From: Candidatus Oxydemutator sp.
GTDB lineage: Bacteria > Pseudomonadota > Gammaproteobacteria > Poriferisulfidales > Oxydemutatoraceae
Assembly (NCBI GenBank): GCA_965203445.1
Contig: OZ241883.1
Location: 2,240,001-2,304,000 of the forward strand
Length of the DNA stretch: 64,000 nt
Direction: 5' to 3'
Made by a program: the position numbers and the translations under genes. The notes under the pieces were generated by a model that saw only the letters and a list, made by a program, of their open reading frames with translations, had not been told where the DNA came from and did no database searches. This document shows positions 38,281-49,939 of this stretch, in pieces (position 1 is the stretch's first letter; the number at the start of each line of letters is the position of its first letter).

Positions 38281-38398
38281 GCCTGGCGGTGTCCTACTCT
38301 CACACGGGGAGGCCCCGCACTACCATCGGCGATGTGCCGTTTCACTTCCGAGTTCGGAATGGGATCGGGTGGTACCAGCACTCTATGGCCGCCAGGCA
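38281..38398 (-). rRNA. rrf: 5S rRNA, not linked to a 23S gene
   Basis: TGCCTGGCGGCCATAG...CCCATTCCGAACTCGGAAGTGAAAC...CGCCGATGGTAGT...GAGAGTAGG..CCGCCAGGC. Confidence 0.97.
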
Positions 38399-38572: not shown

Positions 38573-39109
38573 AACGGGATGTATGGGCTTGTCAAACCGA
38601 AGCACAAATGTCCTATTGTTTCCAAAGCGCAGATGTCCTGTTGTTGGCAGGGCTTAGCGCTTTCATGGTCTCCCCGCCAGCGTCTCCACGGGTGATCCGG
38701 CGCCGGTCTGTGGCCTGAACCGCAGCGCCGCCTGGTTGTCGCCTTATCCACTACAGATGGCAATTGTTTTGCGTCCACTGGCGCCGCCGGTGCCTCGCCC
38801 AGGCGATGCACCTAGTAGGCAGTTCGCGCGTGTTTCAGTTGTTGAGGGATTGGCTATACTGGTGATGCTACGGGAAAGCGATCGCCCTTCGATCCGAGGA
38901 GAAGTTTCAGTTGTTGAGGGACTGGCTATACTGGTGATGCTGCTATCTGCGGGCGCGCGGGCACGGGCAGATCGGGTTTCAGTTGTTGAGGGATTGGCTA
39001 TACTGGTGATGCGCCGCCGCGCGCGAGACCGACGCCGAGGATACCGCATGTTTCAGTTGTTGAGGGATTGGCTATACTGGTGATGCCGAGGGGTACGCGG
39101 GGTAGGCGC

Positions 39110-39137
39110 TTGCGGACGGGCAGGGTTGTGATACACT
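39110..39137 (+). promoter_or_regulatory. Putative sigma70 promoter inside the array insert
   Basis: TTGCGG-N16-TACACT with extended -10 TG. Confidence 0.5.
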
Positions 39138-39143
39138 TCGCCC

Positions 39144-39286
39144 GTCACTCTTTGGGATTGGTTATACTGGTTTGAGGGCGGTGACGCCATCTTCTGCGGG
39201 TGGCGGAACCGATGGCAGAAGATGTGCAAGCGTCAGGAGACCGTCCTCCTCCTGCAATTTAGTAGCCGCCCTCATTCCTTTTGTTT
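39144..39286 (+). ncRNA. Candidate structured small RNA with a degenerate half repeat
   Basis: GGGATTGGTTATACTGGT (17/18 to repeat nt 15-32); stems TGAGGGCGG/CCGCCCTCA, TGACGC/GCGTCA, CATCTTCTGC/GCAGAAGATG; T-rich end. Confidence 0.45.
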
Positions 39287-39604
39287 CGCCCTTTTTCTTT
39301 GGTACAGCAGAATCCCGACGCGGCGCCTGTCAATGTATTCCCACTTCGCGCGCAGCACGGTCACAAACACCGAGCCGTCCTCGTGCTCCTGCGCGACCCC
39401 GAGAATGGGACGCGCCTTGTCCTCGCCTCGGAACACCTTGATATAGTGCCTGCGGTATTCGCCTGGCCACGAATACCAGGCCAGCCACTCCTCGTCGGCA
39501 TCCTTCAGCGTCGGTAAATAGAAGTTTGCGTATCGCTCGCGCCAAGTGCGCCTCCCCTTTTTGCCGACGACGACGTGGGTTGCGCCCCCCCAGCCGAATC
39601 TCAC
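39272..39604 (-). CDS. PBECR2-like RNase toxin domain (phage MuF C-terminal type), standalone or a gene fragment
   Basis: H...K....RERYANFYLPTL...EEW....YRRHYIKVF...DRRRVGILLY; frame stays open to the repeat at 39636. Confidence 0.65.
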   Translation of the reverse strand: MRFGWGGATHVVVGKKGRRTWRERYANFYLPTLKDADEEWLAWYSWPGEYRRHYIKVFRGEDKARPILGVAQEHEDGSVFVTVLRAKWEYIDRRRVGILLYQRKRAKQKE

Positions 39605-42600
39605 GCCCCCGGCGGGCTCTCCCCGCGTTTTGATGGTTTCAGTTGTTGAGGGATTGGCTATACTGGTGATGCGGTCGGCGCCGGTGGCGAACCACCAGAA
39701 CTTGCGGTTTCAGTTGTTGAGGGATTGGCTATACTGGTGATGCCGAAATCCAGGGGCGCGTGCTCGCGCCCGACGACGGGTTTCAGTTGTTGAGGGATTG
39801 GCTATACTGGTGATGCAGAGGTTTCCTTTGCCGAGTTGGACAAGCGTTGGGGTTTCAGTTGTTGAGGGATTGGCTATACTGGTGATGCGCTTGTGCCAAC
39901 GCCTGCGCACGCGGCGCATTGATGTTTCAGTTGTTGAGGGATTGGCTATACTGGTGATGCCTTTTGCTCGACGCCCTGCAACATTTCCACGTTCGTTTCA
40001 GTTGTTGAGGGATTGGCTATACTGGTGATGCCGCAGCGCGCCGAAGTTCCGCAGCACCCACTCCACGTTTCAGTTGTTGAGGGATTGGCTATACTGGTGA
40101 TGCCCGGCGCCGGCAGCGCGAGCGGCGGCAGGTCAATCGTTTCAGTTGTTGAGGGATTGGCTATACTGGTGATGCCGACGACGCGCTCTACGACGCGGAG
40201 CTTCATGAGTTTCAGTTGTTGAGGGATTGGCTATACTGGTGATGCGATCGCGCAGATGCCGAAGGCCGACATCTATGGCGTTTCAGTTGTTGAGGGATTG
40301 GCTATACTGGTGATGCCGCAAGGTCAAGACTTCCGCGGCGCATAGCCGACGCCAGGCGCATAGCCGACACGGCTATACTGGTGATGCCGCAAGGTCAAGA
40401 CTTCCGCCCCAGGTTTGTGGATGTTTCAGTTGTTGAGGGATTGGCTATACTGGTGATGCTGTTTGGTGTTGTCGAGCGCGGTGGCAGAACTGGTGTTTCA
40501 GTTGTTGAGGGATTGGCTATACTGGTGATGCATACCCGCCCGGCCAATACCACTATATCCCCGGGTAGTTTCAGTTGTTGAGGGATTGGCTATACTGGTG
40601 ATGCGTCAAGTATGGGCGTTCGACGGCCTCCAGCCTATGTTTCAGTTGTTGAGGGATTGGCTATACTGGTGATGCACGGCGCAGGGGAAAACGCGCCTGA
40701 GGTTATGCCGTGTTTCAGTTGTTGAGGGATTGGCTATACTGGTGATGCGGCGCGCTGACTTTGTTCTTGGTCACCTTCGCGGTTTCAGTTGTTGAGGGAT
40801 TGGCTATACTGGTGATGCTCTCACAAACAGTCTGGCCGCGTTTCACATCCCAGTTTCAGTTGTTGAGGGATTGGCTATACTGGTGATGCCGCGTTGGCCG
40901 ACACCGCCGCGCGTGTGCTCGGCAGTTTCAGTTGTTGAGGGATTGGCTATACTGGTGATGCTGATGAAGGCGATTGTGGACATGAGGCCGGCGCCGTTTC
41001 AGTTGTTGAGGGATTGGCTATACTGGTGATGGCCGCGACTGGCGATCAATGCGTGGCGGGGAAGCCGCGTTTCAGTTGTTGAGGGATTGGCTATACTGGT
41101 GATGCTGGGTGTTCGCCAAATCGAAATACGCGGTCAACGCAGTTTCAGTTGTTGAGGGATTGGCTATACTGGTGATGCGAAGTGATCCGCAAGTTCCCCG
41201 CGCACATGACAAGTTTCAGTTGTTGAGGGATTGGCTATACTGGTGATGCCTCCAGCATGGCTTTCTGTTTCGAGTCCAGCCCGCGTTTCAGTTGTTGAGG
41301 GATTGGCTATACTGGTGATGCAGCTCTACACCTCCGTCGTGGCAAATAATGTCCGGAGTTTCAGTTGTTGAGGGATTGGCTATACTGGTGATGCTCCCGT
41401 GCGCGTTCCGCTGGTCGAAAAGAGGCGGCGTTTCAGTTGTTGAGGGATTGGCTATACTGGTGATGCTGTCGTACACGAGCGACGACGGCGACAAGTTTTA
41501 TCGTTTCAGTTGTTGAGGGATTGGCTATACTGGTGATGCATCCCGACTCGTCCGGCAGTCTTTGGGCTCAGGGGTTTCAGTTGTTGAGGGATTGGCTATA
41601 CTGGTGATGCTGCGCTCGGATGGCTGGCGGCGTCGAAGGTCTTGACGTTTCAGTTGTTGAGGGATTGGCTATACTGGTGATGCGCGGGAGGTGATGACGG
41701 CCCTTTCCGAAAACGTGTAGTTTCAGTTGTTGAGGGATTGGCTATACTGGTGATGCATAAAGCAAGGTGTTGATGAGACTATTAGTTTCGGGTTTCAGTT
41801 GTTGAGGGATTGGCTATACTGGTGATGCAATCTCGAAGTGGACATCGCCGACCTGCTGAACGAGCAGTTTCAGTTGTTGAGGGATTGGCTATACTGGTGA
41901 TGCCGTAGCCGCACAAAGATTAAACAGAAAATGGATGTTTCAGTTGTTGAGGGATTGGCTATACTGGTGATGCCGGCGCCGACCCCGCCCCCGGATCCCG
42001 TCCGCGACCGTTTCAGTTGTTGAGGGATTGGCTATACTGGTGATGCGCTGGACCTTCTGCACGAGGCGGCGGTCGGCGCAGGTTTCAGTTGTTGAGGGAT
42101 TGGCTATACTGGTGATGCGTGATGCGCGCTCTTGACCTCTTCTGCGGCGTCGGGTTTCAGTTGTTGAGGGATTGGCTATACTGGTGATGCTTAGAAGTGA
42201 AACAATTATGGTTCGAGGACGCCAGTTTCAGTTGTTGAGGGATTGGCTATACTGGTGATGCGGACGGCACGGCAATCAGAATAAAAGACGTACCGAGTTT
42301 CAGTTGTTGAGGGATTGGCTATACTGGTGATGCCGGTGATAGAGAGAATCAAGAGGGAGGAAAAGTGAGTTTCAGTTGTTGAGGGATTGGCTATACTGGT
42401 GATGCGGCACGTTTGCAGGCACGACCTTGTCGGCGGCACGTTTCAGTTGTTGAGGGATTGGCTATACTGGTGATGCGCGGCTACGCCGTTCGGCCAGGGC
42501 ACCAGGGTCTGTTTCAGTTGTTGAGGGATTGGCTATACTGGTGATGCCGGGGCCGCCGCCGACGTTCCCTTTGTCTCAACAAGTTTCAGTTGTTGAGGGA

Positions 42601-42694
42601 TTGGCTATACTGGTGATGCAGAAAGGCACGCAGAGTTCAGAGATGCTTATCGCAGTTTCAGTTGTTGAGGGATTGGCTATACTGGTGATGCCCC

Positions 42695-42727
42695 ATCCCA
42701 AGCCCTTGTTTTACAAGGGCTTGGGAT
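42695..42727. repeat. Perfect 15-bp inverted repeat right after the last CRISPR repeat (leader element or array terminator)
   Basis: ATCCCAAGCCCTTGT-TTT-ACAAGGGCTTGGGAT. Confidence 0.8.
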
Positions 42728-42784
42728 ATTTCACAGGGGGCAGAATTTTCGCAAGTAGAGCTATTGCACCAAAGCACGGCGAAT

Positions 42785-42812
42785 TTGCGAAAAGTAACGA
42801 TTGTGCTACGAT
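42785..42812 (+). promoter_or_regulatory. Promoter of tracrRNA-1
   Basis: TTGCGA-N16-TACGAT with extended -10 TG, just before the anti-repeat. Confidence 0.6.
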
Positions 42813-42818
42813 CATGAC

Positions 42819-42946
42819 TCCAGTATAGCCAATTCTTGATACTCTGTAATCATAAAAAAGTATCTTGAACGGACCTCTGCATTTTTGCACGTCTGCCTTC
42901 ACTCGATGAAGGATTAAGAAACCGCCTCCGGGCGGTTTCTTTTTTT
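42819..42946 (+). ncRNA. tracrRNA-1, Francisella II-B-type scaffold
   Basis: Anti-repeat CCAGTATAGCCAATTCTTGATACTCTG, then TAATCATAAAAAAGTATCTTGAACGGACCTCTG...CACGTCTG, close to the F. novicida tracrRNA as recalled. Confidence 0.9.
42916..42946 (+). terminator. Intrinsic terminator of tracrRNA-1, possibly also serving cas4
   Basis: AAGAAACCGCC-TCCG-GGCGGTTTCTT-TTTTT. Confidence 0.85.
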
Positions 42947-42953
42947 CCGACTC

Positions 42954-43547
42954 TCACAATCGGTCATTACAAAAATTCACGTATTCGCAGGTGCAGCACT
43001 GGGCGACCGTCGCACTCGATTCCGGCTTCAGTCCACGCCGCAGCATCCGCCTGATTTTATCCGCCACCTCTGCAACCAGCCGACGCTTGTCCGCGTCAAT
43101 GTCAATCGTATGCAGAACCTTCCCTTTCCCGACCAAGAATCCGGCCGTGCTCGGCTTGGAAAAATGCTCCTCTAACAGCAAGGCATAAGCCGCCAGTTGC
43201 AGTTGGTCGCCGCGCTTCCCGCGGTTTGCGGAAAGCTTGAACTCGACGGCGTACACCGCCTCGTCGGTTTCCACCGCCATGTCCGCGATGCCATGCAGTC
43301 CCAACGCATCGCTGCGCACCGCCAGATTGTGATGGGTTTTCCCGCTCCGCAAATTGAATCTGGAGAGATTGCGACGCTGCCATAATTTTTCCTCTGCCCG
43401 GTGGAAGTGCTCTCCCTGCCCGACCCAGACGGGGCGATGAAAAGCAACATCGGTCAACTCCATGTAATACACGACCCGCGGGCAGTAGCACCACTGCCGG
43501 ATTAAATTTACCGGAATGCTATATGGCAAGGGTTTCCTCCCAATCAT
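42954..43547 (-). CDS. cas4: CRISPR-associated Cas4
   Basis: RQWCYCPR, HGIAD, VEFK, QLAAYA, CCTCEYVNFC Fe-S cysteines. Confidence 0.95.
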   Translation of the reverse strand: MIGRKPLPYSIPVNLIRQWCYCPRVVYYMELTDVAFHRPVWVGQGEHFHRAEEKLWQRRNLSRFNLRSGKTHHNLAVRSDALGLHGIADMAVETDEAVYAVEFKLSANRGKRGDQLQLAAYALLLEEHFSKPSTAGFLVGKGKVLHTIDIDADKRRLVAEVADKIRRMLRRGLKPESSATVAQCCTCEYVNFCNDRL

Positions 43548-43821
43548 GGAAATCGCTCTTTTCGTGGCCGACAAAATAACTCCGCCCCCGCCCGTTGAAG
43601 TTGGTATGCGTAATAAATGCCTTGTCCGCCTGCCCCAGGCTATCGTGCAGGTAGCGTTTAATCGCCTCCAGCTCCGCCAGCGTCAGATACCCCCAAAACA
43701 CCGACTTCTGCACGGCTCTGAGCCCGTGCTTCCCCAACTCCATAAAAACGCGGGCGCGCGTTTTATTGTCTTCCACGTCGTAGCTGACCAGATACTCCTG
43801 CCGCAATGGATAATTCTTCAT
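43519..43821 (-). CDS. cas2: CRISPR-associated Cas2
   Basis: YLVSYDVEDNKTR, VQKSVFWG. Confidence 0.95.
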   Translation of the reverse strand: MKNYPLRQEYLVSYDVEDNKTRARVFMELGKHGLRAVQKSVFWGYLTLAELEAIKRYLHDSLGQADKAFITHTNFNGRGRSYFVGHEKSDFHDWEETLAI

Positions 43822-43830
43822 GCCGCCAAA

Positions 43831-44787
43831 TCACCACTTGAACAAATAAGGCCGATAGTTTTGCTCGCCGTAGAAATGACCGCACAAACGATAAACTTGG
43901 CGCTGGATAATATGTTCCAATTTGTGCTTCTTTCTGCGATACGTGTATTTCTTGGCGCACGTTTTCTGTATTTCCCCTATCAACGCCTTCTTCAGGGCGA
44001 CATCCAGAACCGTTCGCCCCTCGCTGCGGGAGCGCAACTTGACTACGGCGCGATCAACCACCCACGCGCGGTATTCTTCCATGACGTCGAGCACCAGCGC
44101 CATTTTCCCCGGCCGCCGGACGTGCATGACGCCGAGATAAGGCTCCAGCCCGGCGTTGATAATCGCGCTCAGGATATAACTGCTCAACACCGCGTAACCG
44201 AGATTGAGCATGGCGTTGTTGATTTCCCCGCTTCCCCGCCCCTCGCGCCTCGTGAACGAAGCCGAAAACAGCCGCGCTTGCCGCAAACCCTGAAAATAGG
44301 CATTGGCGCCGGCACCCTCGAAACCGAGCAAGGTCTCGAGGTCTCTCGCGTGTGGCGCCTTGTCCGCGTGTGCCCGCAATTCATCGGCGGCGGAGCGCAG
44401 AAACGGATGCCTGTGATATTTGTCGAGATGGTTCAGCACGGCGCGCTGATTTTTCAGTTTTGCGACGACGATCCTCCGCGCCAGCGGCATCGTGTCGCGC
44501 TGGCAAAAAGCCATCTGCGCCTGGCGCACCGCCACCACACCGTGTTGCGACTGTCCCAAAATCGCCGAGTGTGCGACACCGCGAAAATCCAAAAAAAATA
44601 ACTTGATGCCGCGGCTGCTGAAAGCCTCGATCAGATCGCTCGATATGCTGACGCCGCGTTTGGCGATGGAGACGGTGCACAGGCGATTGAGCGGATAGTG
44701 CCTGCTTTCTCCATCCTGCCTGACCACCAAGCGATGGCTGTTCAGCCCCAAAAAAGCCCCATAGTCGCCGATGACAAGGTGTTTCAT
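43831..44787 (-). CDS. cas1: CRISPR-associated Cas1, II-B type
   Basis: MKHLVIGDYGAFLGL...GIKLFFLDFRG, GFEGAGA..YF, NAMLNLGYAVL, GLEPYLGVMH, LDVMEEYR. Confidence 0.96.
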   Translation of the reverse strand: MKHLVIGDYGAFLGLNSHRLVVRQDGESRHYPLNRLCTVSIAKRGVSISSDLIEAFSSRGIKLFFLDFRGVAHSAILGQSQHGVVAVRQAQMAFCQRDTMPLARRIVVAKLKNQRAVLNHLDKYHRHPFLRSAADELRAHADKAPHARDLETLLGFEGAGANAYFQGLRQARLFSASFTRREGRGSGEINNAMLNLGYAVLSSYILSAIINAGLEPYLGVMHVRRPGKMALVLDVMEEYRAWVVDRAVVKLRSRSEGRTVLDVALKKALIGEIQKTCAKKYTYRRKKHKLEHIIQRQVYRLCGHFYGEQNYRPYLFKW

Positions 44788-44827
44788 GGTGTGATCGTGC
44801 CGGCCAGCCGCGGGCTTGGCCGCGTAC

Positions 44828-44862
44828 TTGACCTGGTCTATAGACCGGTATTATAGTCTATA
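44828..44862. promoter_or_regulatory. TA promoter/operator overlapping a possible divergent cas1 -10
   Basis: TTGACC, palindrome GGTCTATAGACC (44835-44846), TATAGT on +, TATAAT on - (44850-44855). Confidence 0.5.
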
Positions 44863-44880
44863 TAACACAGGGAGCAGGCC

Positions 44881-45123
44881 ATGACCAAAGAAAACATCGG
44901 ATCTTACGAGGCGAAAACGAAGCTGCCCGAACTGTTGAGGCGGGTGCAGGCGGGCGAGGCCTTTACGATAACCAGACGTGGCAAGCCCATAGCGGACCTG
45001 CTGCCCAGCCAGGCCGGGGCGCGACAAAAGACGGCGGCCGCCATTGACAACATCGCTGCCATGGGCAAACGGACGGTCTCCGAGCGTCGCCTGAAAGAAT
45101 ATAGAGACAAAGGCCGCGAGTGA
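44881..45123 (+). CDS. Phd/YefM family antitoxin
   Basis: IGSYEAKTKLPELLRRVQAGEAFTITRRGKPIADL. Confidence 0.92.
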   Translation: MTKENIGSYEAKTKLPELLRRVQAGEAFTITRRGKPIADLLPSQAGARQKTAAAIDNIAAMGKRTVSERRLKEYRDKGRE

Positions 45124-45545
45124 CGACCTTCGTGCTGGATAATTCAGTGGCAATGCGTTGGCTGCTCGCAACTCCCAGCCCTTCGGGGCAGAAGTATGCC
45201 GGGAAGGTCCTGCAAAGCATGAAAGACGCGGACGCGCTCGTGCCCGCGCTCTGGCACCTCGAAGCGGCCAATGTCCTGCTCCACGCCGAAAGAGACGGCC
45301 AGATAACGACCGGCCAGGCACAAGCGTTTGTCTCACAACTGAAAAATCTGCCCATTACGATTGATTCACCGACCCAGACAAATTCGGTCGACCGAATTAT
45401 GGCGCTGGCTCGGTCATACAACCTCAGCAGTTACGACGCCGCCTATCTGGAGATTGCCACCCGCAATTCGGTACGGCTCGCCACCCTGGACAGATCGCTG
45501 GCAAAAGCAGCGAGGAAAGCGGGAGTAGGTATCTATCTGAAATAA
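45120..45545 (+). CDS. vapC: VapC PIN-domain toxin
   Basis: FVLDNSV, WHLEAANVL, LSSYDAAYLE, LATLD; GTGA overlap with the antitoxin. Confidence 0.92.
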   Translation: MTTFVLDNSVAMRWLLATPSPSGQKYAGKVLQSMKDADALVPALWHLEAANVLLHAERDGQITTGQAQAFVSQLKNLPITIDSPTQTNSVDRIMALARSYNLSSYDAAYLEIATRNSVRLATLDRSLAKAARKAGVGIYLK

Positions 45546-45561
45546 GAAAGCACCAGTGTGC

Positions 45562-45828
45562 TCAAGTAGTCTTCGCCTTCAGCGGGAACCGCGCAGGATT
45601 TCGGATGATTTCTCTGCTCAGATCAACGTCTATCATCGGCCAGTAATAATGATCCGCAGATAATTGCTCCACTTTAAGGATCGCCTCAACGGGCTGCCCC
45701 TTGAACCAGGGAAAATCCTCGTAGGACAGAAATAACTCCTCATCATGTGCAAGCAGCCATATACCGTGGGTAGATATATGGGTAACTTCAACTTCTGAAG
45801 TAGTCTTTCCAGGCATTGATGAGTTCAT
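45562..45828 (-). CDS. DUF2442 family protein
   Basis: THISTHGIWLL...ELFLSYEDFPWF...WPMIDVDLS..P.RFPL; ATGA overlap with the cas9 stop. Confidence 0.85.
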   Translation of the reverse strand: MNSSMPGKTTSEVEVTHISTHGIWLLAHDEELFLSYEDFPWFKGQPVEAILKVEQLSADHYYWPMIDVDLSREIIRNPARFPLKAKTT

Positions 45829-48800
45829 TGTGATGGTTCTCTATAGATTTCCAATTCCTTATAACCTATCTCAGTTTCTTCCATCGTTTCATCATCCCTA
45901 AGTGTTGCTCGGGGACCCAGTTTGGTGATAGCCCACGGCCCACTTTTCCCATCAATACGAACCCTATCACCCCGTTTGAATATTTTGAGTATTTTATAAT
46001 TCACTGGAAGTTCTTTATCTATTTCATTTCTTTCATAAACTGGCTGAGACTTATCCTTCCAATAAAACTTATTCGTAATACGAACAGCATCTATTTTATC
46101 TTTTCCATCTTTATTATATTGAATAACCATAACTTTATCCCAAGAAACCGTCCGTCTAAAGTGATGCATGCCTTTTGTATTTTTATCTTTTCTTCGCCAC
46201 ATCTGTTGAACTCCCATGCCCCCTCGGACACCAGGACCCACCCTTACGCAACGAACTGACCGTGTATTCTTGGGGTGTAAAATATGCTCCTGGGGCAGCC
46301 TCAGAAAATAAGAATGCGTAATTGTTCTCTTATCACCGCTTCCATTTGTCATTTCTTTTTTTCTGTCATCCGGCATATCATCGATTTTTTCCCATGCTTT
46401 TTCCATTGCCATCCTGATAGGCTCGGACTGTATATTCCCGATATTCTTTTTTTGAATCTTCTCCAACGGTTTTCTTTGTGTAATCATGCCGTCCAAACAA
46501 CGCAAAGGTTCAGTATCCGTTTTGCTGCATTCGATCTTTCCTTCATTTCTCTTGTCTTCAACATACCAACCCGAAGATTTATCGGGAGCCAACAAATTCC
46601 CTCTGCCGTCTTCTCTTAGATTGATAAAAGCAGGGGCATTTTCCTTCCTTGCCTGCTTACGAACATCACTATTCAAGCGTTTGATCGCTTCCCAATCTAC
46701 ATTTGCTGCCAAGACCACAGCATCAAGGGCATGGTGGAACTCTCTGATGGGATCATCTTTCGCTGGCTCAACAATCACCTTAAACCTTTTCACGGCAATT
46801 TTGGTCTTTATCATAACTTTGATATTCGAGATCTCCCCCGTACTTTTGTCTACAACTTCCACATCGCACCATGGTACATATTTACCATTACCTCTTTTCC
46901 TGTAACACTTCTTCAGTGTCCCAACCAATTTATTACCCTTGACAGATAGCCAATCATTACCTGCTTCCTCATCATTCTTACGATATTTAAGCTTTACAGA
47001 AGCATTAGCACCTTCCAACAATTTACTTAGTTTTTTATCCTTTGAGAAAACATCTTCCAATAACAACTCTAATTCTTGATCAAGCTGTCCTTTTGTCTCA
47101 TAGAGAGTTTCATCTTTCTTTTTTCCACTCGTTTTGCCTTCCTTTACTACTTCAAGGACGAAGTTTTTATTGTTACAGTTCTCTAACCAAAACTGGTTTG
47201 TCCCTACTGCATTATCATCCGGAGTCCCGACAAGCATCACTTTCCCATTATTTTTGTCCGTTCGAATTTCCAGCCAGTCAGTTACCCCTTCATCATAGTC
47301 TTTACAGATAGAAACCTCCCCATCAAATAAATACTCATCCAACTTCAGCTTTGAAAGTTCATATTTGAATTCTTCACCTGCCTTTGTTTTGTATGGATTC
47401 CTAAATCGTATAGCCCGCTTCTGCCGATCCATAAACGGAAACCAGAACCGACGAAGATAAATTGAATCACCTGAACGTATTTTGTGAATCACCTCTGATG
47501 GCAAGTTAAATTCATCCATAAAAGCCTGTTTCAAGAGTTTCGCCCCGAACATGGTGTGCTGTGGGGCAGCAAGCATATCCTCAGGCAGTCTCCTGTCTGC
47601 CTCCAAACGGGATTGAATGAATTTGTGCTTCTCAGGATTATTATTCTCAATCAAAGAAAGGACATTCTTATCCAGAGGCTCCCTCCGGTTGTGCTTATCA
47701 ATATTGCAAATTGAATGACCGATTACTTTATTCCGGGCAATATTTCCCCCACCTTTTGATTTAGGGAACAGATGATCAATATGAGCGTCACTATGCAAAA
47801 ACTCACCACAAAATATGCAACGGCCACCTTGATCCGCCCTAAGCGTGGCCATATCCCCACCCGCCGACTGTTGATACTGTTTCGGCTTGAGCTTCTTCTT
47901 CAGCTTCTTACCTTCACTCTGAGCCAGAGCACTGATATCAAAACGCGCTGTCTCTATACCTACATGTTCAATAGGTATCGGCGAATTTCTGAGGTCTCGT
48001 ACCTCCTGCTCCTTCAACATCTTGCGCACAACAACAGTGATTTTTTCAACTTTCTGCCGTATTGAGGGTGGCGCGTCATCTTTCAATGTTAAAACACGCT
48101 CTTCATGAAGCCTCGCCCATGAATTGCCCTTGGTTTCATCGCGCTCCAAAAGGTTCAGTTTTTGTTCCAGGTGCTTAATACAAAAACCTGCTCTGCCGGG
48201 CTGTTCCCCACAAATAATATCCCTGAGAATATCTTTCTTGCCTCTCGCCTCGTTCTCTGCGGGGAGAACATAGCGATTTCCCCTACTGTTAGTAAAAAAT
48301 TGATTAATAGTTTCCTGATTTTTATTTTTGATAACTCCGTCTAGTTCTTTCACAAACTCCAAACTATTCATCAACTTCTGTATTTCACTCTCATCCAACT
48401 TGTCTTTATTCCCATTGGCACGCCTCACATTCATTTGACGCAACTCAATTTCAAACTGAAGTCTGCGAACGTCTTTCCTGCGCTTTTTAGGGAGATTAAG
48501 TCCGCAACGTGTTCCATCATCGTCAGTAGCTGCCGGGCATTTGCCCATGCTATTGCGGTTGTTGAATCTTTTCTTGCGATATTCACGATTGACTACCTTT
48601 GTTGCTGCCTTAATCCATCGCTTTTTTATTTCTGTAGGGGTAGTACCTGCTCTATGAGCGATTTCACTGGCCTTATTATGAACATCCGCCATTGATTGTT
48701 GCCAATCCTGTTTTATTTTGGCCATAGACAAGATCTGTCTGTTCTGATTGACTTTGCTTTTCTTCAAACCCTGGAAGGTTTCATCCAGGCAAATTTGAAA

Positions 48801-49790
48801 GCGATCCTGCTCCAAGCCACAGGCGACTTTCATCAGGTTTTCCAACCCGCTTAGCATTTCCTCACGATGGCGATTACGATGTGGACGATAAACTTTGCCT
48901 TCCTCAAAAAGCTTCTCACCTGTTTGTAGGCCAAGCATAGTCATAATGCGAGTAACAATTTCTTCTTCCTGAGGTATGGTACTTCCAGCCCCATAGACCA
49001 AACCAAGGCGTTCTTTGATCCAGCTCTTTATATCCTCTGGCACAGCATCTTGAAGTTTTATTTCCAGTGCCTCATAAACCACTTCCTGCCTGGCAAGCTC
49101 CTCCATGACTGAAGAATCTTTTTCGGCTTTTTTTCTGAGATCGTGAATCTCTTTAGCTTTCTCATAAAGCTCACCCAGGCAGCTCCGTTCCTCTTTTATT
49201 TTTATAAAGGAAACAGTTTTGTCAGAAAATTTTTGAGACTCACTATGCCTTGAACGCCTGTTGAATTCTTGTCTTGCGTTGTCTTGGGCTTGTTTGTATT
49301 CCTCGTCTGATTCATTCTTGTATTTCCTACGCCCTTTCTCGTTAAATTCCGCGGGCGCATTAAATTCCTGAAGAAGAATCCTGTCAACTTCTTTAACTAT
49401 TAGAGGGCATTTAGGAGATTTACCATCATCAGTTTTGACAACGAGCAATTCAAGCAAGCTCGCATAGTCCCATCCACGATAATGGGCTAGCGCATAAAGG
49501 CGGTTTCCAAGAGAAGCCTTATCTCTCTCAGTCTGTTTCTCCCCCGGTTTCGCATTTCTTGGCTCCAACCCCATGCCTTTAAGAAGCGCATAGAAGTCGC
49601 GTAGCCGCCTCGCCTTGGAAAGTTTCCGCCTGCGTTGTCCCCTGTTGACGCGACGTTTTTGGAGAGTATCCGATAGCGTAGTGCGATGTTTGAGAACTTT
49701 ATAATCCAGGACTTCATTACTTGAACTCAACAAGCCAACGCCTGTATATGCGTAACCGAAGTCAATCCCTAATCTGAAGGACTTATTCAT
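45825..49790 (-). CDS. cas9: Divergent Cas9, 1321 aa
   Basis: RuvC-I LGIDFG, Arg-rich bridge helix, RuvC-II GIETARF, HNH CIFCG..HIDHLFPKS..N..HSICN, RuvC-III HHALDAVVLA; start at MNKSF with AGGTGG RBS. Confidence 0.93.
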   Translation of the reverse strand: MNKSFRLGIDFGYAYTGVGLLSSSNEVLDYKVLKHRTTLSDTLQKRRVNRGQRRRKLSKARRLRDFYALLKGMGLEPRNAKPGEKQTERDKASLGNRLYALAHYRGWDYASLLELLVVKTDDGKSPKCPLIVKEVDRILLQEFNAPAEFNEKGRRKYKNESDEEYKQAQDNARQEFNRRSRHSESQKFSDKTVSFIKIKEERSCLGELYEKAKEIHDLRKKAEKDSSVMEELARQEVVYEALEIKLQDAVPEDIKSWIKERLGLVYGAGSTIPQEEEIVTRIMTMLGLQTGEKLFEEGKVYRPHRNRHREEMLSGLENLMKVACGLEQDRFQICLDETFQGLKKSKVNQNRQILSMAKIKQDWQQSMADVHNKASEIAHRAGTTPTEIKKRWIKAATKVVNREYRKKRFNNRNSMGKCPAATDDDGTRCGLNLPKKRRKDVRRLQFEIELRQMNVRRANGNKDKLDESEIQKLMNSLEFVKELDGVIKNKNQETINQFFTNSRGNRYVLPAENEARGKKDILRDIICGEQPGRAGFCIKHLEQKLNLLERDETKGNSWARLHEERVLTLKDDAPPSIRQKVEKITVVVRKMLKEQEVRDLRNSPIPIEHVGIETARFDISALAQSEGKKLKKKLKPKQYQQSAGGDMATLRADQGGRCIFCGEFLHSDAHIDHLFPKSKGGGNIARNKVIGHSICNIDKHNRREPLDKNVLSLIENNNPEKHKFIQSRLEADRRLPEDMLAAPQHTMFGAKLLKQAFMDEFNLPSEVIHKIRSGDSIYLRRFWFPFMDRQKRAIRFRNPYKTKAGEEFKYELSKLKLDEYLFDGEVSICKDYDEGVTDWLEIRTDKNNGKVMLVGTPDDNAVGTNQFWLENCNNKNFVLEVVKEGKTSGKKKDETLYETKGQLDQELELLLEDVFSKDKKLSKLLEGANASVKLKYRKNDEEAGNDWLSVKGNKLVGTLKKCYRKRGNGKYVPWCDVEVVDKSTGEISNIKVMIKTKIAVKRFKVIVEPAKDDPIREFHHALDAVVLAANVDWEAIKRLNSDVRKQARKENAPAFINLREDGRGNLLAPDKSSGWYVEDKRNEGKIECSKTDTEPLRCLDGMITQRKPLEKIQKKNIGNIQSEPIRMAMEKAWEKIDDMPDDRKKEMTNGSGDKRTITHSYFLRLPQEHILHPKNTRSVRCVRVGPGVRGGMGVQQMWRRKDKNTKGMHHFRRTVSWDKVMVIQYNKDGKDKIDAVRITNKFYWKDKSQPVYERNEIDKELPVNYKILKIFKRGDRVRIDGKSGPWAITKLGPRATLRDDETMEETEIGYKELEIYREPSQ

Positions 49791-49803
49791 AACCCACCTG
49801 AAT

Positions 49804-49939
49804 GTAAAACAATACCCTGCATAAAGCAGGGTATTGTAGATTTTGCTCGCCCTCAAGCGGTGACTTACTGAAAACAGAGCATCGCCTGCAAAAAACGATG
49901 GTGCCAGCAAGCACCTCGGACTTTTTTCAGTTGTTGAGG
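49804..49939 (-). ncRNA. tracrRNA-2 candidate, non-Francisella scaffold
   Basis: CCTCAACAACTGAAA is the perfect complement of repeat nt 2-16; hairpins GGTGC/GCACC, CATCG/CGATG, GCTTG/CGAGC; 12-bp terminal hairpin. Confidence 0.7.
49805..49837 (-). terminator. Terminator-like hairpin between tracrRNA-2 and cas9
   Basis: ACAATACCCTGC-TTTAT-GCAGGGTATTGT-TTTA. Confidence 0.7.

Follow-up and report, generated by a model that had tools for sequence, protein, structure and literature searches.

The length of spacers in CRISPR arrays is regarded as tightly set, through the Cas1-Cas2 ruler and trimming by Cas4, and Cas4 takes part in spacer acquisition in type II-B systems. During crRNA maturation in type II systems, the 3' end of a spacer is joined with the 5' end of the next repeat. 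In 2019, Varble and colleagues (Nat Microbiol) reportedly observed recombination between phage protospacers and CRISPR spacers, and the resulting phage-CRISPR hybrids are said to be packaged for transduction. The CreTA modules of the Haloarcula type I-B system are toxin-antitoxin RNA pairs that safeguard CRISPR-Cas; their toxin, the small RNA CreT, is kept in check when CreA, a guide flanked by repeats and bound to Cascade, matches the CreT promoter.

MuF head proteins, which resemble phage Mu gp30 and SPP1 gp7, can carry a C-terminal PBECR2 domain and are counted among the 'polyvalent proteins' in the passages that Iyer et al. (2017, PMC5512222) devote to them; the RNase activity of PBECR2 is presented there as a prediction. 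Jamet et al. [quoted passage not shown] Phage-borne solitary repeat units, or RNA anti-CRISPRs (Racrs), are described in PMC10651486.

Here we describe a piece of a MuF-PBECR2 gene that occupies one spacer slot of a type II-B array in Candidatus Oxydemutator sp. The insert resembles a scar left by DNA capture gone wrong more than it does a functional toxin gene.

An over-long interval in a type II-B array

The locus lies in a window of 64,000 nt, the whole stretch of DNA analysed (positions 2,240,001 to 2,304,000 of contig OZ241883.1); coordinates of its features are collected in Table 1. The array consists of 46 copies of a 37-nt repeat, of which 44 are perfect and two have one mismatch, with a terminator-like hairpin directly 3' of the last copy. 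On its far side lie a tracrRNA-like gene with an anti-repeat and a converging operon with cas9, cas1, cas2 and cas4, and we take the presence of cas4 to assign the locus to subtype II-B. The adaptation genes cas1, cas2 and cas4 are intact and adjoin the array, which looks active. In Rfam the tracrRNA-like gene weakly matches the Francisella sRNA FtrA on the plus strand (E 0.003, 41 bits against a gathering score of 134). Since its anti-repeat and terminator lie on the plus strand, the repeats are read on this strand too. The ORF in the over-long interval is therefore antisense to the crRNA, as the first-pass annotation had stated.

Spacer intervals measure 33-38 nt in 43 of 45 cases; the two outliers are 106 nt (40317-40422) and 549 nt long. 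The latter separates repeats 4 and 5, correctly described in the first-pass annotation as intact and 549 bp apart: both are perfect, and their starts are 586 nt apart. The insert has a GC content of 0.61 (genome, 0.636) and occurs once in the 2.38-Mb genome.

As arrays are hard to assemble, a fragment wrongly placed in the array had to be considered. The genome is one closed contig, and the insert is found nowhere else in it. Moreover, a 607-nt contig assembled independently from the short reads of a public run, perhaps of the very sample behind the genome, corresponds to 39058-39664 with zero differences. Its depth is that of the chromosome (26.4 compared with 24.1 for the left flank in X1, 5.7 compared with 5.9 in X2). 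The contig extends 29 nt into each flanking repeat and thus shows the insert between two repeats, leaving the neighbouring spacers unfixed. A misassembly is extremely improbable; in the sample the insert is fixed, and there is one copy of it.

Table 1 Features of the array, the insert and the neighbouring cas locus (window coordinates).
Feature	Position	Strand	Basis or remark
CRISPR array, type II-B, 46 x 37-nt repeats	38832..42691	+ (crRNA sense)	Repeat positions and spacing; orientation by tracrRNA anti-repeat and terminator-like hairpin
Repeat 4, perfect	39050..39086	+	
549-nt interval in one spacer slot, between repeats 4 and 5	39087..39635	.	Repeat positions
Left segment, 67 nt	39087..39153	+	No homologue found
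Scrambled repeat remnant	39154..39178	+ (array orientation)	39154-39171 = repeat positions 15-32; 39172-39178 = repeat positions 11-17
Perfect 10-bp inverted repeat	39188..39224 (arms 39188-39197, 39215-39224)	.	In the ~100 nt 3' of the gene's stop
MuF-PBECR2 gene, 3' fragment, 120 codons + stop, whole PBECR2 domain	39272..39634	-	Pfam, BLASTP
Longest ORF with a start codon, GTG, 110 aa	39272..39604	-	Only protein database entry is the genome's own predicted protein
Predicted guide part, last 24 nt before repeat 5	39612..39635	+	Predicted; matches MuF-PBECR2 gene at start of PBECR2 domain
Repeat 5, perfect	39636..39672	+	
tracrRNA-like gene	42812..42945 (about)	+	Anti-repeat 42820-42833; terminator hairpin with T-run
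cas operon, converging on array	42954..49910	-	Pfam and ORFs
cas4	43574-42954	-	Pfam Cas4, E 6.8e-13
cas2	43821-43519	-	Pfam Cas2, E 7.1e-11
cas1	44787-43831	-	Pfam Cas1, E 3.4e-61
cas9	49910-45825	-	Pfam HNH and RRXRR matches, 1361 aa

Identity of the gene fragment

The minus strand has a frame that is open from 39709 to a stop codon at 39272-39274. Its openness up to repeat 5 had been recognized before, but not its extent, as the frame continues through that repeat. The first in-frame start codon is a GTG at 39604. GC contents of 0.61, 0.46 and 0.77 at codon positions 1, 2 and 3 of the fragment are the coding pattern of a GC-rich host. The likeness to PBECR2, previously proposed, was recovered by a Pfam search with a match to PF18810 well above the cut-off (E 6.8e-12, 46.1 bits compared with 27.1) over profile positions 38-120 of 120, the sole such match in the genome. 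The full-length relative P0002 covers positions 35-120 of the same profile, so the absence of the first third does not stem from truncation.

P0002 is a metagenomic protein of 425 aa with a Phage_Mu_F domain at residues 39-165 and PBECR2 at 333-420 (Pfam). BLASTP aligned the fragment to its residues 309-425 without gaps, with 74 of 117 positions identical (63%, E 1e-49). Query residue 26, encoded by the first codon past repeat 5, pairs with residue 309, and the alignment ends at the C-terminus. In total, 142 library proteins match the fragment at E<=1e-3, many of them about 400-470 residues long and matched at their C-terminal end. The aligned full-length homologues bear a long N-terminal part, in which the MuF domain is Pfam-confirmed for P0002 only. 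The best relative is known as a protein alone, from a 1397-nt contig.

Judged by these alignments, the ORF makes up the 3' third of a phage head-protein gene of the MuF-PBECR2 type, and the cut coincides with the repeat boundary. It is a fragment of a MuF polymorphic toxin or polyvalent protein gene, not a member of that group: the C-terminal 117-120 residues are present, whereas nothing corresponds to residues 1-308 of the relative, which comprise the Phage_Mu_F domain (PF04233) and the linker, and the frame upstream consists of CRISPR repeat and spacer. Nor does it lie in a head-morphogenesis cluster of portal, MuF and G-like genes, being flanked by CRISPR units instead.

The domain itself appears unbroken. 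His20 lies within a predicted helix (residues 15-22) in a column that holds His in 52 of 58 sequences, and Thr92 falls in a column of Asn (33/60) or Thr (26/60), together 59/60, so that both conserved residues of the family are represented. Two of 18 conserved family columns deviate in the fragment; the other 59 sequences have a median of one and a maximum of four. An AF2 model (pLDDT 83.7) shows two helices followed by a four-stranded sheet. Foldseek found no match to this model in the PDB at E<=0.001; the best, weak match was a CdiA-CT toxin-immunity complex (6cp9_A, E 0.059, probability 0.98, TM 0.42), and a Salmonella toxin-antitoxin entry and RelE followed at E 0.3-0.8. The fragment retains the whole predicted domain with its catalytic His and may be toxic if expressed.

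The insert was found in no other genome searched: 40 relatives gave no DNA match except one 25-nt hit, and 400 other genomes sampled from the class gave no protein match at E<=1e-8. A related array in another genome (G006) has regular units only.

Junctions and extent of the phage DNA

The right junction is exact: the insert is joined to position 1 of repeat 5. On the left the picture is more complex. An 18-nt repeat fragment, missed in the first-pass annotation, begins 100 nt past the gene's stop codon. It agrees with the repeat in 17 of 18 nt (C23 -> T) and contains the 14 core nt that form a perfect duplex with the tracrRNA anti-repeat; the changed base would still form a G-U pair. The first 14 nt of the repeat were not detectable in the 67 nt to the left of the remnant, where the local alignment score was reached by 42% of shuffles.

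Among eight related loci of phages or prophages, seven have a Mu G-like gene (PF05069) next in line, which starts 103-145 nt past the MuF-PBECR2 stop. These PBECR2-type relatives directly precede the G-like gene, and in this they differ from the MuF toxins with a small downstream ORF in Jamet et al. (PMC5576092). Given this spacing, phage homology is expected to leave non-coding DNA near the remnant. The N-terminus of a G-like protein was not detectable to the left of the remnant, which is weak evidence as such N-termini are poorly conserved. The phage-derived part most likely spans 39172-39635 (~464 bp) and would comprise the last 120 codons and ~100 nt past the stop. The 67 nt before the remnant may stem from an old spacer with filler or from further foreign DNA.

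Origin of the insert

We consider it most probable, at roughly 60%, that a late-region piece of a Mu-like phage was captured in a half-regular manner, became fixed in a spacer slot of the type II-B array and is now a passenger. This agrees with one of two earlier proposals, a phage-derived capture. One end would have followed the rules of spacer insertion or spacer homology, while the other was closed by illegitimate repair. At the right end, Cas1-Cas2 may have attacked at the repeat border, or a crossover may have occurred within a prior 35-nt spacer that matched the gene. At the left end, an irregular join inside a repeat copy would have left repeat positions 15-32 and the 7-nt repeat scrap. 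The same array carries a second scar in its 106-nt interval, where a piece of the repeat's 3' part is combined with filler and with a spacer start that is duplicated; together with the 549-nt insert it indicates that irregular joining happened in this array more than once. The ungapped, stop-free frame, the small number of deviating columns and the lack of a promoter-like site suggest that the capture is recent and the piece passive.

Some observations speak against half-regular capture. There are 32 nt of filler (39122-39153) that it leaves unexplained, and with the undetectable first 14 nt of the repeat the left side would take at least two steps or else a complex event of template switching. 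For homologous recombination, an anchor of 35 nt offers little length. It is also mildly coincidental that the cut lies no more than about 24 residues from where the domain starts.

Compared with Cas1-Cas2 acquisition, ordinary or ectopic, the insert is similar in that a phage gene fragment lies with exact borders between two perfect repeats, close to the array's leader end; for the left 67 nt no homologue was found. It differs in the scrambled internal repeat fragment and in its length, which the ruler of the integrase should forbid. All 549 nt may nevertheless be one over-long prespacer, inserted by a normal two-site Cas1-Cas2(-Cas4) reaction that duplicated the repeat, the 18-nt piece having come along with it, be it from a phage-array hybrid molecule or as a repeat mimic carried by the phage. 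In favour of this, both outer junctions fall exactly on repeat borders, the MuF homology begins at the first codon past repeat 5 and the adaptation genes are intact. However, an array-oriented repeat fragment and a second 7-nt scrap are unexpected inside phage late-region DNA, and a collinear phage segment should carry G-like coding sequence where none was detected, a weak point for the reason given above. The slot is fourth from the leader end, and so three to four later acquisitions or an ectopic insertion would be required. We regard a single giant spacer as possible but doubtful. If the whole insert is foreign, the repeat fragment arrived with the phage DNA and reading it as a broken repeat is wrong.

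The phage-borne Racrs of PMC10651486 resemble the insert in that a lone repeat-like piece adjoins phage-derived DNA and keeps the core that pairs with the tracrRNA. In contrast to them, the piece here covers internal repeat positions only, has no promoter-like site, runs antisense to the phage gene and lies within the host array; a broken host repeat is the simpler reading. In the recombination ascribed to Varble and colleagues, crossing over inside a spacer would leave phage sequence running to the repeat border, as seen at repeat 5. The phage piece here differs in being fixed in a chromosomal array, where the anchoring spacer is not present twice.

Integration of Mu-like phages is nearly random, and another MuF gene is present elsewhere in the genome (1441374-1441751). 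It is still highly unlikely that the insert is what near-complete deletion left of a Mu-like prophage transposed into the array: the fragment is internal to the phage genome, so that two independent deletions ending on or in a repeat would be needed, phage end sequences are absent and the insert has no similarity to the rest of the genome. Equally improbable are two arrays with a decayed gene between them. The sequences 5' of repeat 1 and 5' of repeat 5 are unrelated, and repeat 5 therefore has no leader of its own. For this reason, and for want of a complete gene with its own signals, the previously suggested gene island between two sub-arrays is also unsupported.

Expression signals and fate of the fragment

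The other earlier proposal was a toxin silenced by antisense RNA in the manner of CreTA. PBECR2 would be kept as a toxin whose expression is repressed either through antisense pre-crRNA or through a guide of Cas9, and loss of the array or of Cas9 would kill the cell. The insert shares with CreTA a potentially toxic element inside a CRISPR-cas locus with a repeat-like fragment beside it. In favour of a safeguard are the entire domain with His20 and Thr92, the confident predicted fold with its weak likeness to BECR/RelE-type toxins, the lack of decay and the antisense position of the ORF.

The expression signals point the other way. Neither strand of the insert contains a promoter-like site, nor was one found on the minus strand to its right. 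The GTG start has a GGAG 14 nt ahead and a G-run abutting it, but no well-spaced Shine-Dalgarno sequence. While CreT is controlled from its own promoter by a repeat-flanked guide, the candidate here is a protein domain with no matching guide: among 48 candidates (46 repeat-adjacent guides and two repeat-like elements elsewhere, comprising the spacers, the guide of an orphan mini-array and a repeat-like element upstream of cas9), none has a seed of at least 10 nt to the insert region apart from self matches. Absence from the 40 relatives, the 400 class genomes and the regular G006 array leaves no conservation across CRISPR loci that would argue for function. No intact immunity gene lies downstream of the fragment, and seven of the eight related phage loci lack one behind MuF-PBECR2, so the domain is perhaps not self-toxic at all. 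The RNase activity, too, is a prediction in the passages of Iyer et al. (PMC5512222). A safeguard toxin is thus very improbable, and the proposal was not supported.

Under half-regular capture, pre-crRNA transcription would cross the gene fragment on the opposite strand and leave it a passive relic. We call it a passenger because expression signals are absent, the protein itself being unbroken. Processing by tracrRNA and RNase III at repeat 5 would yield a crRNA with the last 20-24 nt of the insert as guide, and the unit may still act as an ordinary spacer against its source phage.

Implications

Gene-sized phage DNA between perfect repeats may be a natural exception to the length rule or, alternatively, the natural footprint of phage-array recombination, which to our knowledge has so far been demonstrated mainly in laboratory staphylococci. 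Array-calling software rejects long 'spacers' and may split or miss such arrays. Several properties make this case useful: the captured piece is precisely identifiable, one junction is exact and the other scarred, and the predicted crRNA would still target its own source gene. As a toxin gene it has no practical importance unless expression is demonstrated.

It is conceivable, if rather unlikely, that Cas1-Cas2-Cas4 of this system can insert DNA about 15 times too long and that arrays occasionally store whole, still-foldable phage protein domains, in this case a predicted RNase effector domain in full, as a general and undescribed failure mode or side activity of the integrase. If true, an over-long unit would still function as a spacer, since only its last ~20 nt enter the crRNA. 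The rest of the unit would be raw material for domestication by the host, which could turn it into, for instance, a toxin under antisense control and so render the array addictive. Exception to the length rule or footprint of recombination, either reading bears on the evolution of CRISPR arrays.

A gene-sized interval in a type II-B CRISPR array

The intervals between the 46 repeats of the array are 33-38 nt long in 43 of 45 cases, the remaining two measuring 106 nt (40317-40422) and 549 nt (39087-39635, the insert). The cas genes occupy the minus strand to the right of the array, and Cas9 combined with Cas4 makes up the type II-B gene set. Within the tracrRNA-like gene, 14 nt pair perfectly with repeat positions 18-31, and the gene ends in a GC-rich hairpin with a T-run. 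At this site Rfam gives a weak match to the Francisella sRNA FtrA on the + strand (E 0.003, 41 bits, gathering score 134), and the region presumably resembles the Francisella novicida tracrRNA. This gene, together with the hairpin after the last repeat, indicates that crRNA is made from the + strand, which places the leader left of repeat 1 and the open reading frame (ORF) of the insert antisense to the pre-crRNA, bearing out the orientation proposed in the first-pass annotation.

Coordinates of the CRISPR array and neighboring features
Feature	Position	Strand	Details
5S rRNA gene	38281-38396	-	Rfam, 102 bits
Presumed leader	38590-38829		immediately left of repeat 1
CRISPR array	38832-42691		46 copies of a 37-nt repeat; 44 perfect, 2 with one mismatch
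Repeat 4	39050-39086		perfect
Repeat 5	39636-39672		perfect
Hairpin with T-rich tail	42695-42730		directly after last repeat
tracrRNA-like gene	about 42812-42945	+	between last repeat and cas4
cas4	43574-42954	-	Pfam Cas_Cas4, E 6.8e-13
cas2	43821-43519	-	Pfam, E 7.1e-11
cas1	44787-43831	-	Pfam, E 3.4e-61
161-aa ORF	44851-45336	-	between cas9 and cas1; no Pfam match at E<=1
cas9 (taken to be)	49910-45825	-	1361 aa; Pfam HNH and RRXRR matches

Contigs from public sequencing runs support the insert as assembled. Two runs of one sample, which may be the genome's own source reads, hold the stretch, and a third (X3) does not cover it. In the first run (X1), a 607-nt contig corresponds to 39058-39664 with zero differences at a depth of 26.4, compared with 24.1 in the left flank and 33.5 in the contig beyond the array. 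The second (X2) covers 293 nt of the insert at a depth of 5.7, with 5.9 in the flank. The insert is therefore confirmed between repeats, as a single copy and fixed. As the X1 contig reaches only 29 nt into each repeat, the order of the neighboring spacers is not fixed by these contigs.

Several features surround the array. The GC content of cas9 is ~43% over 45600-49900 (codon positions 0.51, 0.35 and 0.42) in a genome of 63.6%, which suggests a low-GC donor for cas9 and perhaps also for the AT-rich tracrRNA and repeats; cas1-cas2-cas4 have ~57%. Repeat positions 2-16 are copied at 49925-49939 on the + strand, which is antisense to cas9, ~15 nt ahead of the cas9 start codon. The adjoining 24 nt have no other match in the genome, and the copy may be an element derived from the repeat that regulates cas9. 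The presumed leader, with a doubled ~20-nt motif near its left end, belongs to a repeated family with seven matching segments at six other genome loci (84-90% identity, 54-241 nt); for the copy at 1840237-1840477, homology reaches to 2 nt before the repeat. The family could consist of the ends of a mobile element, or of promoters or sRNAs. The 5S rRNA gene, ~435 nt left of the array, has no 23S on its upstream side, where the CRISPR array is found instead.

Elsewhere in the genome, on the minus strand (L018:1427-1530, equal to 143427-143530 of genome contig C1), there is an orphan mini-array with repeats of the type II-B family, immediately upstream of a different array whose ~28-nt repeats are type I-E-like. 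The mini-array comprises the 3' part of a repeat, one spacer of 35 nt and a degenerate repeat with 7 mismatches. Its 12-nt seed has one other genome match (1719140), not followed by GG, with an estimated ~0.3 expected by chance. It could represent a scaRNA-like regulatory guide.

The insert encodes the 3' third of a MuF-PBECR2 gene

The first-pass annotation described the insert and its ORF correctly, as evidenced by the repeat spacing, the frame and the GTG start. On the minus strand, the frame runs without interruption from 39709 across repeat 5 and terminates at the stop codon 39272-39274. The GTG at 39604 is its first start codon, with none further upstream, and would give 110 aa. A Pfam search confirmed the earlier identification as PBECR2 (PF18810, E 6.8e-12, 46.1 bits with a cut-off of 27.1, profile positions 38-120). 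Searching 1.84 billion representative proteins using HMMER, we obtained 142 matches at E<=1e-3, 15 at E<=1e-10 and two at E<=1e-30, one of the latter being the window's own predicted protein. The best foreign match is P0002, a metagenomic protein of 425 aa whose residues 39-165 match Phage_Mu_F and 333-420 match PBECR2 (profile positions 35-120). In BLASTP, the insert frame aligns ungapped to P0002 residues 309-425 with 74 of 117 residues identical (E 1e-49), and the alignment starts at the first codon after repeat 5. On this alignment, the ORF is not a small gene but the 3' third of a gene for a MuF-PBECR2 head protein, truncated at the border of the repeat. GC by codon position in the frame (0.61, 0.46 and 0.77) is consistent with coding sequence of a GC-rich background, as in this genome.

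We aligned the fragment with 59 relatives. It holds the entire conserved block of the family, which begins close to the 'TP' motif at which solo versions of the domain start as well. Two positions are kept, the N-terminal helix His, shared by 52 of 58 sequences, and the Thr/Asn position (59 of 60); they match the active-site pattern that Iyer et al. (PMC5512222) give for PBECR domains. Of 18 strongly conserved columns the fragment deviates at two, within the range of the other sequences (median 1, maximum 4), so the frame appears free of decay at the sequence level. The AlphaFold2 model calculated from the family alignment is confident (pLDDT 83.7) and displays two helices followed by a four-stranded sheet. 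Foldseek found no match in the PDB at E<=0.001; the best matches were the CdiA-CT toxin-immunity entry 6cp9 (E 0.059, probability 0.98, TM 0.42), a Salmonella toxin-antitoxin entry and RelE, in weak agreement of the predicted fold with the BECR assignment. PBECR2 homologues also occur as short ORFs without an upstream MuF in two metagenome-assembled genomes recorded as Ca. Porisulfidus and Bryobacterales (L013:3968-4474 and L016:3977-4282), showing that isolated PBECR2 pieces or solo versions exist in other genomes.

The fragment is foreign to its host lineage

The insert is single-copy in the closed 2.38-Mb genome, in which PF18810 is found nowhere else. The one other MuF gene (1441374-1441751) has neither a PBECR2 match nor DNA similarity to the insert. 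Using a 1301-nt query against 40 related genomes, the insert part remained unmatched except for one 25-nt stretch, and none of 400 other genomes sampled from the class gave a protein match at E<=1e-8. Among 50,697 phage records, neither tblastn with the fragment nor a blastn protospacer search with the whole array returned anything. An IMG/VR scan with the single protein likewise found nothing; with a 5-sequence alignment it yielded nine loci, only 31-34% identical. Scanning metagenomes with P0002 gave one locus, matching in the MuF part only, and a scan of genome contigs gave five loci with best-segment identities of 37-54%. In a word-index search, proteins of similar length comprised only the window's own and longer ones only P0002. 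Given the single copy, the absence from relatives and class sample, and the distance of all relatives in phages, IMG/VR, metagenomes and genome contigs, these comparisons indicate that the fragment is foreign to this lineage. When the spacers were compared with their own genome by blast, no match exceeded 25 nt among the matches listed.

One junction is exact and the other scarred

The right junction is exact, falling at position 1 of the perfect repeat 5. It could have formed by Cas1-Cas2 strand transfer at the repeat border, or by a crossover inside a pre-existing spacer matching the MuF gene; we liken the latter route to the phage-array recombination reportedly described by Varble et al. 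The left junction lies within a repeat copy and is scrambled, a pattern suggestive of illegitimate end joining or of template switching. Here an 18-nt remnant (39154-39171), ~100 nt past the stop codon, matches repeat positions 15-32 at 17 of 18 nt in array orientation and continues directly into 7 nt identical to repeat positions 11-17. The 14 nt expected before it in a whole repeat were not detectable, 42% of shuffles reaching the alignment score.

At seven of eight related loci in phages or prophages, the MuF-PBECR2 stop is followed after 103-145 nt by the start of a Mu G-like gene for virion morphogenesis, leaving no space for an immunity gene (PF05069 was assigned by Pfam for two of the G-like genes and by alignment for four more). 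In the insert, stop codon and remnant are 100 nt apart and no G-like N-terminus is seen beyond. Based on these two observations, the most economical reading places the end of the phage DNA at ~39172, at a broken repeat. We favor it by about two to one over a foreign origin of all 549 nt. For the 67 nt from repeat 4 to the remnant, relatives were sought and none found. The left 185 nt gave chance-level tblastx matches only against the genome and related loci, no Pfam or PHROGs match for a 37-aa ORF (ATGA overlap with the stop codon) or other open frames, and a probability below 1% in profile comparison of the left part with Mu G-like proteins. The codon-position GC of the 37-aa ORF gives no support for a coding sequence, and a relation of the left part to the orphan mini-array failed on alignment.

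The 106-nt interval is a second scar. After a full repeat come 20 nt that duplicate the beginning of the next spacer, 34 nt of filler with an internal 14-nt direct duplication, only positions 21-37 of a repeat and lastly the normal spacer of 35 nt. The arrangement resembles a scar of template switching or mis-sited integration, and its presence in the same array indicates that irregular joining occurred more than once. The filler of both scars has no source longer than 20 nt elsewhere in the genome. The literature searched, mainly as listings and abstracts, holds no description of gene-sized inserts in spacer slots. We regard the insert as a variation on known spacer capture and array rearrangement.

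A probable passive relic that should still work as a spacer

The first-pass annotation weighed phage capture against a toxin module retained as a CreTA-like safeguard of the array. As the PBECR2 domain is whole, such a safeguard keeps a low probability, but the idea is unsupported. No sigma-70-like site was found on either strand of the insert, the GGAG upstream of the GTG is poorly spaced at 14 nt with a G-run abutting the start, and no intact neighboring gene accompanies the ORF. Moreover, 48 candidate guides (the 24 nt before each of 46 repeats, the guide of the orphan mini-array and the repeat-like element upstream of cas9) gave no seed match of at least 10 nt to the region except self matches. 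A terminator-like hairpin on the + strand (39612-39626) was given no weight, with 1 observed vs 2.1 in shuffles. Both the observation and the PBECR2 identification are confirmed, and the spacer slot contains a piece captured from a phage head-protein/effector gene.

Counted from the leader end, this slot is the fourth. Most systems add spacers at the leader; if this holds here, the capture would be recent, which fits the undecayed frame. Type II crRNAs mature to the 3' part of a spacer and the 5' part of the next repeat, so the insert unit should still yield a crRNA. Its predicted guide, at about 39612-39635, is directed against the beginning of the source gene's PBECR2 domain. In that case the over-long unit would still act as an ordinary spacer, and the insert is most likely a passive relic that continues to work as one.
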